A DNA stretch of 64,000 bases. Source: Sulfurimonas sp. Lineage in GTDB: Bacteria > Campylobacterota > Campylobacteria > Campylobacterales > Sulfurimonadaceae. Numbering within the stretch: position 1 is the stretch's first letter; each line of letters begins with the position of its first letter. The notes below the pieces were generated by a model. It saw only the letters and a list, made by a program, of their open reading frames with translations, was not told the origin of the DNA and made no database searches. The stretch lies in contig JAMORO010000064.1 of NCBI GenBank assembly GCA_027063505.1, positions 4,343 to 68,342 on the forward strand. The letters run 5' to 3'. This document shows positions 1 to 4,365 of the stretch, piece after piece. The translations under genes and the position numbers were made by a program.

Positions 1-1093
1 TGTTTTTGGAATGTCACATGATCAGATAAAACGTGAAATTATGGATAAATACATCTTTATTAATCGCTTATCAGAACAACTTCAAGACTTAATTATGGGT
101 ATGCGAATGTTACCTATCTCTTATGTATTTGACCGTTATCCTAAACTTGTTCGTGATATCGCAAAAACTTTAAATAAAAAAGTAAAACTTGAGATGATTG
201 GTGGGGAGACTAAGTTAGATAAAAATATGATTGAGATGCTTGCTGATCCAATGATTCATATTATGAGAAACTCACTTGATCATGGAATAGAGATGCCAGA
301 TGTTCGTGAGCAAAAAGGAAAAAACCCTATAGGAATAGTTTCATTAAACGCTTATGCTCAGTCAGATAGAATTATCATTGAGATTACTGATGATGGAGCA
401 GGGATTAATGTTGAGAGAGTTGCAAGTAAGGTTCTAGAAAAAGGTCTTATGACACCAGATCAGATTGATGCACTGAGTGAAAAAGAGATGGCTGAACTAG
501 TGTTACTTCCAGGTCTTTCAACTGCAGAAGAGATTACAGAATTTAGTGGCCGTGGTGTTGGTATGGATGTTGTGAAAAAATCTATAGAGAGTTTTGGTGG
601 AAGTATTGGGATAACAACAAAAGCAAATGAAGGTACGGTTATTACTTTAGCAATACCGATGTCATTAGCAGTTACTTCTCTTCTTCATATTGAGATGAAC
701 TCTATTCATTATGGTATTCCTATGGATAGTGTCTCAGAAACTGTAAAAATTGAGCATAACGAGATAGAGTATCTTCATAATGAACCGTTTGTATATATAA
801 GAGGGGATGTTATTCCTCTCTTATTTATAAAAAGTATGTTAAATGAAGAGAATATGACTGATAAACCTCTCTCTATTGTTGTATTAAATATTAAAGATAA
901 TTTATTAGCAGTAGTTGTAAATGAGTTTCTTGGACAACTCGATGTAGTTCAAAAACCACTTGTTGGAATAATGGAAGGACATCCTCTCTTTAGCGGAACT
1001 GCACTTCTTGGAAATGGACAAATAATTATGGCTATGGATCCATTAGGACTTTTAGGTATCAGTAAGAAACTTAAAGAAGAGATACAGTTATGA
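1..1093 (+). CDS. cheA: Chemotaxis histidine kinase CheA, 5'-truncated by window edge (dimerisation, HATPase and CheW-like domains; no C-terminal receiver)
   Basis: Frame is open from base 2 into the ORF at 11. Motifs RMLPISYVFDRYPKLVRDIA, HIMRNSLDHGIE, DDGAGI, GRGVGMDVVK and a C-terminal CheW-like domain (SGTALLGNG). Confidence 0.95.
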   Translation, partial: VFGMSHDQIKREIMDKYIFINRLSEQLQDLIMGMRMLPISYVFDRYPKLVRDIAKTLNKKVKLEMIGGETKLDKNMIEMLADPMIHIMRNSLDHGIEMPDVREQKGKNPIGIVSLNAYAQSDRIIIEITDDGAGINVERVASKVLEKGLMTPDQIDALSEKEMAELVLLPGLSTAEEITEFSGRGVGMDVVKKSIESFGGSIGITTKANEGTVITLAIPMSLAVTSLLHIEMNSIHYGIPMDSVSETVKIEHNEIEYLHNEPFVYIRGDVIPLLFIKSMLNEENMTDKPLSIVVLNIKDNLLAVVVNEFLGQLDVVQKPLVGIMEGHPLFSGTALLGNGQIIMAMDPLGLLGISKKLKEEIQL

Positions 1094-1854
1094 TAGATTT
1101 AATAGTATTTAGTGTCGGTGATAATAAATATGCTATGGATATAGAGTATGTGCAACGTATAATCCAAGCAAAAGGTTTAACAAGTATTCCTAATGCCCAT
1201 ATTTACCTTGATGGAATGATGTCTTATGAAGATAAAGTAATTAAAGTTTTAAATTTTCGTAAGCTTATAGGTATGACTACTTATGAAGATGAGTTAGATG
1301 CGCTTTTTAACTCTTTAGTTAAAGCACATGCTGCTTGGGTAGATGCACTTCGTGTCTCTTTAGAAACAGGATCTGAGTTTACAAAAACATTTGACCCTCA
1401 TGCTTGTGGTTTAGGAAAATGGATAGACTCTTTTACTGCCTATGATGATCATGTTTTAGAAGTTTTAAATGAATTAGTTGAGTATCATAAGCAGCTTCAC
1501 ATTACGGGTGGTATGGCTTATGATATAAGAGCAGATGATAGGGAAAAAGCACTAGAAATATTTAATGTTGATATAATGAATATCTATCAACATACAATGG
1601 GTGCATTAGAAATATTTATAAATGAGTTAGATATTGTAGCTGACTCATTACAGAAATTTCTTATTTATGAGAACAGTGGTTCTGTTTTTGCAATAAAAGT
1701 TGATGCAATAGAAGATATAGCACATGTTCAAGAGAGTGAGTTTACAAACATTAGTGGAGAGAATGAAACAAGCGAATTCTTGGATTTAGATGGAGTGCTT
1801 GACTTTAAAGGTGTTTTAATAAATGTTATTAAAACAGTAAAACTACCTAAGTAA
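1090..1854 (+). CDS. cheW: CheW-family coupling protein with an inserted CZB zinc-binding domain
   Basis: CheW N-half (LIVFSVGDNKYAMDIEYVQRII...IPNA...LDGMM) and C-half (VFAIKVDAIEDI) flank HAAW...HACGLGKW...HKQLH. ATGA overlap with cheA. Confidence 0.85.
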   Translation: MIDLIVFSVGDNKYAMDIEYVQRIIQAKGLTSIPNAHIYLDGMMSYEDKVIKVLNFRKLIGMTTYEDELDALFNSLVKAHAAWVDALRVSLETGSEFTKTFDPHACGLGKWIDSFTAYDDHVLEVLNELVEYHKQLHITGGMAYDIRADDREKALEIFNVDIMNIYQHTMGALEIFINELDIVADSLQKFLIYENSGSVFAIKVDAIEDIAHVQESEFTNISGENETSEFLDLDGVLDFKGVLINVIKTVKLPK

Positions 1855-1864
1855 AGGGGATAGA

Positions 1865-2137
1865 ATGTCGATTACATATGAAAATAATGAAGCAAATTTT
1901 ACATCAGTAATTTATGAAGATGAGGTCGTCTCATTTAGAGATTTTTTACAAGAGAAAGCTGGTGAAGAAGTTTCTATTAAATTTACAGAGTGCGAAGATA
2001 TACATTTTGCAATTATTCAACTTATTATGGCATATAAAAAGAGTTATAGCTGTAGTTATGTTTTTGGAGAGAAAAAGAGATTGTATCAAACTGTTTTAGA
2101 AGGATTTACAACTAGTGAAAACTATTGTAGTAAGTAA
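1865..2137 (+). CDS. Small STAS-like protein
   Basis: 90 aa with a GGGGA ribosome-binding site. VSIKFTECEDIHFAIIQLIMAYKK resembles the STAS core hDhsxvxxhDsaglQlLl. Confidence 0.55.
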   Translation: MSITYENNEANFTSVIYEDEVVSFRDFLQEKAGEEVSIKFTECEDIHFAIIQLIMAYKKSYSCSYVFGEKKRLYQTVLEGFTTSENYCSK

Positions 2138-2855
2138 TCGAAAAGGAGGCTCTGCAAAGACAACAACTGCTGTTAATATTGCAAGTGGTTTAGCAAAGCA
2201 TGGTTCAGTCCTTTTACTTGATTTTGATACACAAGGGCATGCTTCTATAGGGGTAGGGTGCGAACCAGATGAAAATATAGGAGTTCACTCTATCTTTGAT
2301 GGTTCTACTCTTAGTGAGACATTTATACCCACTGTACATGAAAATCTTACTCTCTCTCCTGCATTAGTAAATTTTGATGTATATGAGTATGCTGACTTAA
2401 GAGGGATACTTAAAAATCGATTTAAACGTGAAAAGATAGCAGATTTTTTTGACTACTGTGTCATAGATACTCCTCCTACTTTTGATGCACTGTTGAAAAA
2501 TTCTCTCGAAGTTGCAGATAGTGTAGTCATTCCTTTTGTGCCACATCATTTAGGTGTTGTTGCTGTTGGACAGATGCTTCGAGCACTTTATCAAAGTGCT
2601 AAAGTACAGGAGAGAGAGATTGCAGATGTATCTATTCTCCCCGTAATGTATAATCCTCATATTAATGAGCACAAAGAATCTGTTGAAAAAGTAAAAATAT
2701 CTTTTGGTAAAGAGAAACTCTTAAAACCAATAGGTGTAGATATTAAGCTTGCACAACAGTTTGAATCTGGAAAACCTATTATCTTAGATGTAAAGAGATC
2801 TAAGGGAATGAAAGATTACAAACAGTGTGTTGATGACCTATTAAAAAGAATTTAA
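2115..2855 (+). CDS. ParA/Soj-family ATPase inside the chemosensory cluster
   Basis: Deviant Walker A NRKGGSAKTTT, DFDTQG, DTPP. GTG start overlapping the STAS gene. Confidence 0.9.
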   Translation: MKTIVVSNRKGGSAKTTTAVNIASGLAKHGSVLLLDFDTQGHASIGVGCEPDENIGVHSIFDGSTLSETFIPTVHENLTLSPALVNFDVYEYADLRGILKNRFKREKIADFFDYCVIDTPPTFDALLKNSLEVADSVVIPFVPHHLGVVAVGQMLRALYQSAKVQEREIADVSILPVMYNPHINEHKESVEKVKISFGKEKLLKPIGVDIKLAQQFESGKPIILDVKRSKGMKDYKQCVDDLLKRI

Positions 2856-2856
2856 G

Positions 2857-4365
2857 ATGCAAGAAGTACAGAAACTAAAAATTCTTGCGTGTGAAGCAGA
2901 TATAAGAATTTTAAGTCGACTAGAGTCTTGGATTTTAGCAATAAACCATGATGTGATTATTACTAGCGATGGAGTTGCTGCTTTAGAGGTATTTAAAAAT
3001 GAGAAGCCAGATATAGTACTCCTTTCGCAAGAACTTAAAAATATGGGTGGACTTGAGCTTTTAGCAAGTATAAAAGAAGTTGTTCCTACTCAAGCAACAA
3101 TCTTGATGCTTGGTGATAATGATATGAGTATTTTTAAACGTACTATTGAACTTCAAGTTGATAAATACTTAAATAAACCCATTGAAGCAAAATATCTGTT
3201 TCAAGCAGTCGATAGTCTCTCTGAAGAGAAGATTTGGCATAAAGAGTTTCGCACACAGAAGAAAGAACTCCAAGATTATAAAGATGCGATAGATCTCTCT
3301 TTTAGTGTTTCTCAACATGATAAAAATGGAAATATAATCTATGTAAATGATCTTTTCTGTGCAACTACGAAACTAGAGTATTCTGACGCAATGGCAGGAA
3401 TAATCAATCCTTTAAATAATCCTAACACAGATATGAAAGTAGTATGGGATGTATTAGAAAAGGAGTTTATCTATAGAGGAAGACAAATCTTTAAATCATC
3501 GAATGGTGAAGAACATATTATTGATATAACAGCGGTTGCATTAAGAGATGAAGAGAATGAAGTATATGAGTATCTTGTTTTTTCAGATGATGTGAGTGAT
3601 ATTATATATGCTGCACGTAAAATTAAAGATCAAGAACTTGACAATAGACTTGAAAAACTTAATCATGCAAGAGAACTTAATAAAGTAAAAGACTCTTTTT
3701 TAACTGTTTTTACACATGAACTTAAGACACCTCTTAATGCAATTATTAATTTTTCAGAGTATGTAGGGAAACATCTTGCAAGAGAAGATTTAAAAAAAAG
3801 AGATAGACTCTTATCTCAAGTAGAAGAGATCAATAAAAGTGGCCACTTCATGCTTGGTATGATTTCAAATCTTATGGATGCTATAAAATTTAGAGATTTA
3901 AAGATAGAGCTTAAGGTAAAACAGATAAATATTGTAAATATTATAGAAAATTCCATTCTCTATAATAAAAAAAATGAATATGATATAAAAGTGATTTTTG
4001 AAAAGAGAGAGGATGTGATTGTTTTTTCAGATCCTGAATATTTTTTAAGTATTTGTAATCATTTACTATCAAATGCTATGAAATATGCTGCAAAAACAGT
4101 GAAAATAAGATTAGTTCAAGAGAATGATGTATGTAGTATTATAATAGAAGATGATGGAGTTGGCTTTAGTAATACTGAACATGTGTTTGAGTTGTTCGAG
4201 CAAGATGATACTGATAGTCTAACCCGAAATGCGACAGGTACAGGTGTTGGGCTTTACATAGTTAAGAAACTTTGTGATAGAATGTCTTACAATTTAGAGT
4301 TACTCTCTAGTGAAGAATTAGGTGGGGCAAAAGTAATCTTAAAAGTCAAAATGGATATTAGATAA
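2857..4365 (+). CDS. Cytoplasmic hybrid histidine kinase (pseudo-REC, PAS, HisKA, HATPase)
   Basis: H-box FTHELKTPLNAI, N-box LLSNAMKY, G1 IEDDGVGF, G2 GTGVGL; PAS-like DKNGNIIYVNDLFC; REC-fold N-terminus; no hydrophobic span seen. Confidence 0.9.
   Translation: MQEVQKLKILACEADIRILSRLESWILAINHDVIITSDGVAALEVFKNEKPDIVLLSQELKNMGGLELLASIKEVVPTQATILMLGDNDMSIFKRTIELQVDKYLNKPIEAKYLFQAVDSLSEEKIWHKEFRTQKKELQDYKDAIDLSFSVSQHDKNGNIIYVNDLFCATTKLEYSDAMAGIINPLNNPNTDMKVVWDVLEKEFIYRGRQIFKSSNGEEHIIDITAVALRDEENEVYEYLVFSDDVSDIIYAARKIKDQELDNRLEKLNHARELNKVKDSFLTVFTHELKTPLNAIINFSEYVGKHLAREDLKKRDRLLSQVEEINKSGHFMLGMISNLMDAIKFRDLKIELKVKQINIVNIIENSILYNKKNEYDIKVIFEKREDVIVFSDPEYFLSICNHLLSNAMKYAAKTVKIRLVQENDVCSIIIEDDGVGFSNTEHVFELFEQDDTDSLTRNATGTGVGLYIVKKLCDRMSYNLELLSSEELGGAKVILKVKMDIR

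Follow-up and report, generated by a model that had tools for sequence, protein, structure and literature searches.

A Sulfurimonas CheW with a CZB bundle nested in its predicted fold, encoded in an F9-class chemosensory cluster

Chemotaxis scaffolds are usually regarded as passive couplers. The subject of this report is a gene for one such scaffold protein, CheW, whose sequence is interrupted by a CZB domain, a type of domain that in other proteins binds zinc. The gene, which we call CheW::CZB, lies near the beginning of a 64,000-nucleotide stretch of Sulfurimonas sp. DNA (GenBank assembly GCA_027063505.1, contig JAMORO010000064.1, positions 4,343 to 68,342; hereafter the window) recovered from hydrothermal-vent metagenomes. 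Four described systems offer points of comparison. The first is the CheW-CZB class, a named class which makes up 1.4% of CZB proteins and is most abundant in Clostridia (Perkins et al. 2021, mBio, PMC8262984), and which is listed as previously identified in a later publication (Muok et al. 2023, mBio, PMC10653840). The passages on the class in these two papers describe a fused or "CZB-regulated" CheW, with mention neither of a nested topology nor of an experimental study of any member; from the split position shared by the relatives examined (see below), the class of the literature appears to be the insertion type described here. The second comprises Escherichia coli DgcZ and Helicobacter pylori TlpD where, according to the sections dealing with them, zinc binding and oxidation of the cysteine by HOCl switch the output to which the CZB is attached (PMC8262984, PMC6715182). 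The third is CheWS of Treponema denticola, in which CheW is combined with a CheR-like S-adenosylmethionine (SAM) sensor, as outlined by Muok et al. (2023, PMC10653840), and which provides a signal input to the array. The last is the F9 class of chemosensory systems, which forms membrane-free two-layer arrays in Vibrio cholerae and has as its signatures a DosM receptor with two signalling domains and a triple CheW protein, CheW3 (PMC9321776, PMC7534058).

CheW::CZB is a single uninterrupted open reading frame (ORF) specifying 254 amino acids plus the stop codon, and its ATG shares the tetranucleotide ATGA with the stop of the preceding cheA. Pfam analysis of the whole protein revealed CheW-like (PF01584) at 59.6 bits, against a cut-off of 23.5 bits, in two stretches, the better of which places residues 4-67 on positions 2-65 of the 138-position profile; CZB (PF13682) was found over residues 80-140 at 36.2 bits (cut-off 29.4 bits). 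A scan against NCBIfam returned sub-threshold matches only. When the three pieces of the protein were scanned separately, the N-terminal piece gave a strong CheW match (E = 1.9e-13), the insert scored as CZB at 37.9 bits (E = 2.4e-9), and the C-terminal piece matched CheW weakly, at profile positions 68-112 (E = 0.021). Since the last value is insufficient by itself to establish a complete fold, a custom hidden Markov model (HMM) and a structural model were needed. The HMM, of 142 positions, was built from uninterrupted close relatives of 140-149 amino acids and from the canonical CheWs of the same genome. Its positions 1-68 are matched by residues 1-68 of the protein (83 bits) and its positions 70-141 by residues 183-254 (64 bits), so that the split is a clean one from which no part of CheW is missing. 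The uninterrupted relatives, such as P0152 (54% identical), are colinear with both halves and possess a short loop at the site of the CZB. A preliminary description of this DNA, made from its letters, had placed the break in CheW after KVLNFRKLIG (residues 52-61) and its resumption at KFLIYE (residues 189-194); Pfam and the HMM show both to be correct, the two families it had named for a split CheW and a CZB score above their cut-offs, and the codons which it assigned to three histidines and a cysteine are exact (Table 1).

A first AlphaFold2 run used 29 close homologues, an alignment which was too shallow: the mean predicted local distance difference test score (pLDDT) was 60.5, the CheW halves fell below 50, and the CZB alone was well modelled. 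With 118 diverse sequences the model attained a pLDDT of 96.3 (94-99 in the insert region) and a predicted template modelling score (pTM) of 0.88. DSSP assigns strands to residues 2-55, a short helix to 56-59, helices to 65-93, 107-114, 120-146 and 151-187, and strands again to 189-250. In a VIA-align search against 48,161 PDB representatives the best match was CheW of T. tengcongensis (2qdl_B; Z 17.3, root mean square deviation [rmsd] 2.1 Å, 136 of 146 residues), which is covered by model residues 1-254, and the CheA P5 domains rank next (Z 14-15). Residues 65-182 match the CZB of DgcZ (3t9o_B; Z 14.0, rmsd 2.5 Å, 116 of 120 residues). Other four-helix sensor bundles score at Z 10-13.5, so the fold match to CZB is unspecific by itself, and it is the motif which gives specificity. 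Foldseek returned template modelling (TM) scores of 0.74-0.80 to CheW chains over 246-250 columns, and of 0.75-0.79 to the CZB of DgcZ (3T9O) over the insert. In the model, as the preliminary description had supposed, the C-terminal segment completes the fold of two intertwined beta-barrels which is characteristic of CheW. The first helix of the insert begins approximately five residues past the last element of the N-terminal half, the last helix passes straight into strand 189-195 with no flexible linker, and the relative orientation of the CheW and CZB domains is predicted confidently. The protein described by the alignments and the model together is a complete CZB four-helix bundle nested within one complete CheW domain.

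The insert carries the full 3His/1Cys set with its CxLGxW and HxxxH motifs. In the model His80 lies on the first helix, Cys106 (of CGLGKW) at the turn before the short helix, and His133 and His137 on the third helix. Pfam detected no methyl-accepting chemotaxis protein (MCP), GGDEF or EAL domain beside CheW and CZB, which is the architecture of the CheW-CZB class. The four ligands, together with G109 and W111, are invariant in the 29 close homologues; the His/Cys/His/His tetrad is kept in 104 of the 112 wider relatives that bear an insert, and is complete in 39 of 45 Sulfurimonadaceae sequences (the window protein and 44 full-length orthologues). Conservation to the degree seen in the close homologues and the wider relatives greatly exceeds what chance would give. 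Besides the histidine ligands, the reactive-cysteine motif CxLGxW is conserved across phyla.

The position of the insert within CheW bears on its likely role. As judged by alignment it replaces the loop at approximately residues 77-86 of E. coli CheW, which joins the two beta-barrel halves, and it ends directly before the strand equivalent to T86, V87 and V88, residues implicated in receptor contact (PMC13098124). The CheW core has a further feature of interest. In CheW a salt bridge between Glu38 and Arg62 keeps the receptor and kinase binding sites aligned (Ortega et al. 2013, PMC3828127). When aligned to the E. coli protein, Arg23 and Glu47 of CheW::CZB occupy these two positions with opposite polarity. 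Among 118 relatives the R/E pair is present in 44 and the E/R pair in 23, with no instance of E/E or R/R, and all 45 Sulfurimonadaceae sequences have R/E. On this alignment Arg23/Glu47 is the charge-swapped equivalent of the Glu38-Arg62 bridge, a putative compensatory double change, which would constitute independent evolutionary support for the functional importance of the bridge.

Table 1. Positions in the window of the CheW::CZB gene, its parts and its immediate neighbours
Feature	Position	Strand	Basis
Whole gene, CheW with nested CZB domain	1090..1854	+	ORF list, Pfam, ATGA overlap with cheA
CheW domain, N-terminal half (residues 1-64; five strands and short helix 56-59)	1090..1281	+	Pfam, HMM, model DSSP
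Inserted CZB bundle (residues 65-187; helices 65-93, 107-114, 120-146, 151-187)	1282..1650	+	Pfam, model, structure matches
CheW domain, C-terminal half (residues 188-254; five strands)	1651..1851	+	Custom HMM, model
Arg23, position of E. coli CheW Glu38	1156..1158	+	Alignment; PMC3828127
Glu47, position of E. coli CheW Arg62	1228..1230	+	Alignment
His80, predicted zinc ligand, helix 1 of insert	1327..1329	+	Motif position, conservation
Cys106, predicted zinc ligand and putative redox-reactive thiol, CGLGKW motif	1405..1407	+	Motif position, conservation
His133 (1486-1488) and His137 (1498-1500), predicted HxxxH zinc ligands, helix 3	1486..1500	+	Motif position, conservation
cheA, 3' part (whole gene specifies 917 aa, Hpt-dimerisation-HATPase-P5; its start lies on this contig, upstream of the window)	2..1093	+	
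STAS-like protein, 90 aa, conserved beside the CheW gene in all related loci	1865..2137	+	No Pfam match; Atlas model; synteny
ParA/MinD-like P-loop ATPase, 23-nt overlap with the STAS-like gene	2115..2855	+	ORF list, Pfam, synteny

The architecture is widespread. An exhaustive search of representatives yielded 1704 clusters at E ≤ 1e-3, of which 587 reached E ≤ 1e-10. The 150 best representatives include 96 relatives of 240-300 amino acids, in almost all of which the HMM located the same split, and the middle CheW domain of about 30 triple-CheW proteins (600-770 amino acids) is split likewise, the presence of CZB having been confirmed by Pfam in several of these. The CZB-bearing relatives derive from Campylobacterota, Lachnospiraceae and Phycisphaeraceae, a range which beyond the Sulfurimonadaceae rests on few named cluster members, and those examined share one CheW split position throughout; in the Lachnospiraceae and Phycisphaeraceae members, too, the Pfam match to the N-terminal half ends at profile position 65-66. 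No terminal fusion of CheW and CZB was found among the relatives, in a search that was seeded with the nested protein. The preliminary description had regarded internal insertion, rather than terminal fusion, as the unusual part, a view which we do not share since every CheW+CZB relative examined has the same architecture and the class has already been catalogued. One metagenomic triple-CheW protein (P0155, 768 amino acids) has both its second and third domains split by inserts of approximately 120 amino acids, of which Pfam recognizes only the first as CZB.

The chemosensory cluster to which CheW::CZB belongs is, in this assembly, divided between two contigs (C59 and C64), at an end of each. 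Upstream of it on its own contig are genes for a HEAT-repeat protein, CheR, CheY, a 130-amino acid protein (X130), a further CheY and CheA, and downstream are those for the 90-amino acid protein, the ParA-like ATPase, a receiver-PAS-histidine kinase and a receiver protein with an unassigned C-terminal part. The second contig ends with genes for a PAS protein, a 629-amino acid MCP, a triple CheW and CheB. The MCP is DosM-like, having two MCPsignal stretches and no transmembrane segment (maximum KD19 hydropathy 1.40), and the CheW3 protein (452 amino acids) contains three CheW stretches and is intact, that is, without a CZB. In S. aquatica and more than 40 related loci, all of our related loci being limited to the Sulfurimonadaceae, the two blocks are contiguous and the order is identical: PAS, DosM-like MCP, CheW3, CheB, followed by HEAT, CheR, CheY, X130, CheY, CheA, CheW::CZB, STAS-like and ParA. 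Since a DosM-like MCP and CheW3 are encoded together with a cheA/cheY/cheB/cheR cluster, this is an F9-class system. In the F9-type cluster of another organism the CZB sits in the middle domain of CheW3. The Sulfurimonas genome as a whole has 13 CheW-like and 9 CZB matches.

One of these represents a second nested CheW::CZB paralogue (G000:C54:9109-9915, minus strand, equivalent to L004:2113-2916, minus strand) of 268 amino acids, which is 27% identical and has the ligands. It belongs to no che cluster and directly follows a thioredoxin gene of the same strand, a neighbour which hints at a thiol-redox link.

With regard to the remaining genes of the cluster, the 90-amino acid protein gave no Pfam match, and the resemblance of its Atlas model to STAS clusters (TM 0.67-0.80) is a lead only; the STAS-like/ParA pair may position the membrane-free array. 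The 130-amino acid protein encoded between the two cheY genes (L001:1905-2294, plus strand) is conserved and belongs to no Pfam family, with weak Atlas feature leads to CheZ-like phosphatase clusters (scores 0.77-0.79). The receiver-PAS-histidine kinase gene (2857-4365), which separates parA from the last receiver gene, occurs in only about one third of the 60 related loci and can thus be described as a variable cassette; in run X2, one DNA contig of low depth passes over 660 nt within it (2885 to 3546).

Contigs from further sequencing runs cover parts of the region. A contig from an independent DNA run spans 703-1958 with a single difference, and exact-match contigs (1012-1441 and 1048-1198) were obtained from two vent metatranscriptome libraries of one sample. 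The contigs from the RNA libraries bridge the cheA/cheW and CheW/CZB junctions, reaching into the CZB up to Cys106; they are compatible with co-transcription, a weak hint given that DNA carry-over is possible. Other stretches of the operon have no contig in these libraries, which carries no information on their expression.

The Sulfurimonadaceae provide a natural series of presence and absence. The CZB is present in 51 of 60 species, and the remaining nine (loci L057-L061 and L063-L066; for example L058:8001-8429) possess an orthologue of about 143 amino acids without it, at the same locus between cheA and the STAS-like/ParA pair. At the junction these short forms retain remnants of the ends of the first and last helices. 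At one of the CZB-less loci (L066:3796-4218) the frame from the tblastn start stops after 21 codons, which may reflect a frameshift or an error in the assembly of this metagenome-assembled genome (MAG). In a tree based upon CheA and ParA, rooted on the most divergent loci (Sulfuricurvum and MAGs of Sulfurimonadaceae and "Helicobacteraceae"), the CZB-minus state needs five changes and the outgroup consists entirely of CZB-plus rows. Three changes suffice on a tree of the CheW halves alone, and well-supported branches make two of these unavoidable. Since the outgroups are all CZB-plus and the changes recur on both trees, the CZB is best considered ancestral and to have been deleted at least two to three times (up to five); some of the CZB-less cases may have arisen by allele exchange. 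The insert is also the least conserved part of the protein, with a mean identity of 51% versus 58-68% for the CheW halves, and six of the 45 Sulfurimonadaceae sequences, concentrated in one clade, have a degenerate ligand set. As CheW is kept throughout these losses and substitutions, it can be regarded as the constant part of the protein and the CZB as an accessory module.

The clade in question (L034, L036, L037, L062 and L067) is also distinguished by a STAS-like gene that has moved to a place before the CheW::CZB gene. The zinc site is degenerate at four of these five loci (L034, L036, L037 and L067), where His/Cys/His/His is replaced by, for example, Cys/Ser/His/His or Tyr/Ser/His/His; the degenerate sites outside the clade are those of L009 and L044.

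What might such a protein do? The explanation which we favour, at a probability of roughly 0.6, is that CheW::CZB is a second coupling protein of the F9 cytoplasmic array, and that its nested CZB tunes CheA according to zinc or redox state; that it senses either is something we infer by analogy with the characterised CZB proteins. Zn2+ would staple together helix 1 (through His80), the turn bearing Cys106, and helix 3 (through His133 and His137). If, by analogy with TlpD and DgcZ, zinc were lost or Cys106 oxidised, the strain between the two CheW halves would change, because helix 1 starts only about five residues after the N-terminal half and the last helix enters strand 189-195 without a linker. 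A shift in strain might alter the alignment of the receptor-binding and CheA-P5-binding surfaces, and this in turn would adjust the activity of CheA within the DosM/CheW3 array. Labile zinc in the cytoplasm, or the thiol-redox state there, would serve as the signal, either of which is plausible for a sulfur oxidiser at redox interfaces. The preliminary description had gone further, proposing that the scaffold signals to CheA without a receptor, for which we find no support: the operon encodes a DosM-like receptor, CheW3, CheR and CheB. Because the insert adjoins the receptor-contact strand and the operon specifies a receptor, a modulated coupling between receptor and kinase is more economical than a bypass of the receptor.

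Several considerations weigh against this explanation. It is from TlpD and DgcZ that zinc binding, redox reactivity and the effect upon CheA are extrapolated. The CZB has been lost at least two to three times (up to five) in Sulfurimonas with retention of CheW, and the ligand set is degenerate in six of 45 Sulfurimonadaceae sequences, from which it follows that the sensor is dispensable in some lineages. Moreover, the separate, intact CheW3 of the same operon could do all of the scaffolding.

A broader proposal, which we put forward tentatively, is that CZB domains nested in CheW or CheW3 are the sensory input of F9 arrays. The scaffold itself would read zinc or the thiol-redox state, strain its half-barrels and signal to CheA, and the CZB-plus and CZB-minus alleles would represent an evolutionary on/off switch. 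The DosM receptor of these arrays has no recognisable ligand-binding domain.

There is a smaller, still appreciable chance that the CZB serves chiefly for structure or oligomerisation, as a module whose dimers cross-link CheWs and thereby help to build or stabilise the two-layer F9 array, zinc being purely structural. CZB domains act as dimers in the characterised proteins DgcZ and TlpD, as stated in the sections concerned (PMC8262984), F9 arrays lacking membrane support depend on the extra linkers DosM and CheW3 (PMC9321776, PMC7534058), and in the model the bundle is attached rigidly (pTM 0.88, no linkers). An essential architectural role is, however, hard to square with the repeated deletion of the CZB from operons which are otherwise intact, and the reactive-cysteine motif, besides the histidines, is conserved across phyla, which likewise speaks against this reading.

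We think it improbable that CheW::CZB alone binds CheA P5 and switches the kinase directly, outside of a receptor array. The ATGA overlap couples the gene translationally to cheA, CheW3 is already available for scaffolding, and the orphan paralogue is encoded far from any receptor gene, all of which would suit such an input. The protein has nevertheless kept a complete CheW core, and the residue pair at the positions of the salt bridge that aligns the receptor and kinase sites is conserved with swapped charges; its insert abuts the strand that contacts receptors, and every complete locus (at least 40) has genes for the cognate receptor, CheR and CheB in this operon.

Still less credible is the suggestion that the insert is, in this lineage, a decaying relic with no present sensory role. 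Deletion on at least two to three independent occasions, the six degenerate ligand sets among 45 and the low conservation of the insert (51% versus 58-68% mean identity) are what decay would produce, but this genome and its nearest relatives show no variation at the four ligands, G109 or W111, the full tetrad persists in most sequences (39 of 45 in the Sulfurimonadaceae, 104 of 112 among the wider relatives), and the bundle is predicted at a pLDDT of 94-99. Finally, an artefact of assembly or annotation, in which two genes or fragments were wrongly joined by fusion or frameshift, can be dismissed as having a negligible probability given the uninterrupted ORF, several hundred colinear homologues in independent assemblies, the DNA contig from a separate run which spans the gene with one difference, and the confident two-domain model.

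Compared with the known systems, CheW::CZB has the architecture of the CheW-CZB class, with which it shares a CheW-like and a CZB domain in one chain, the absence of MCP, GGDEF and EAL domains and an intact 3His/1Cys set; the Lachnospiraceae members are colinear with the Sulfurimonas protein and are split at the same position of CheW. It differs in its location in an F9 cluster of a vent bacterium. What is new here is the proof of register, the F9 context beside an intact CheW3, the naturally occurring series of CZB deletions and the putative charge swap in the salt bridge. With DgcZ (YdeH of E. coli, PDB 3T9O/4H54) and H. pylori TlpD it has in common the bundle fold, the ligand set and the CxLGxW motif. 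In those proteins, however, the CZB is terminal, on a GGDEF domain or an MCP coiled coil, whereas in CheW::CZB a beta-barrel scaffold domain holds it firmly at both ends, and sequence identity is only about 17%. The cluster resembles cluster I/F9 of V. cholerae (DosM VC1403, triple CheW VC1402, CheA VC1397) in possessing a DosM with two signalling domains and no transmembrane segment, CheW3, and clustered CheA, CheB, CheR and CheY, to which Sulfurimonas adds a single-domain CheW with CZB, the STAS-like protein and the ParA-like ATPase. The orthologous CZB-plus and CZB-minus operons, together with the natural ligand variants, amount to a ready-made experiment that is testable by reconstitution. 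CheWS of T. denticola is the precedent, and the only such case, for sensing by way of a domain attached to CheW, though in that protein the fusion is terminal and the fold of the sensor and its ligand are different. If the explanation favoured here is true, a zinc/redox bundle within CheW would be, after CheWS, a second and structurally more intimate point at which a signal enters at the level of the scaffold.

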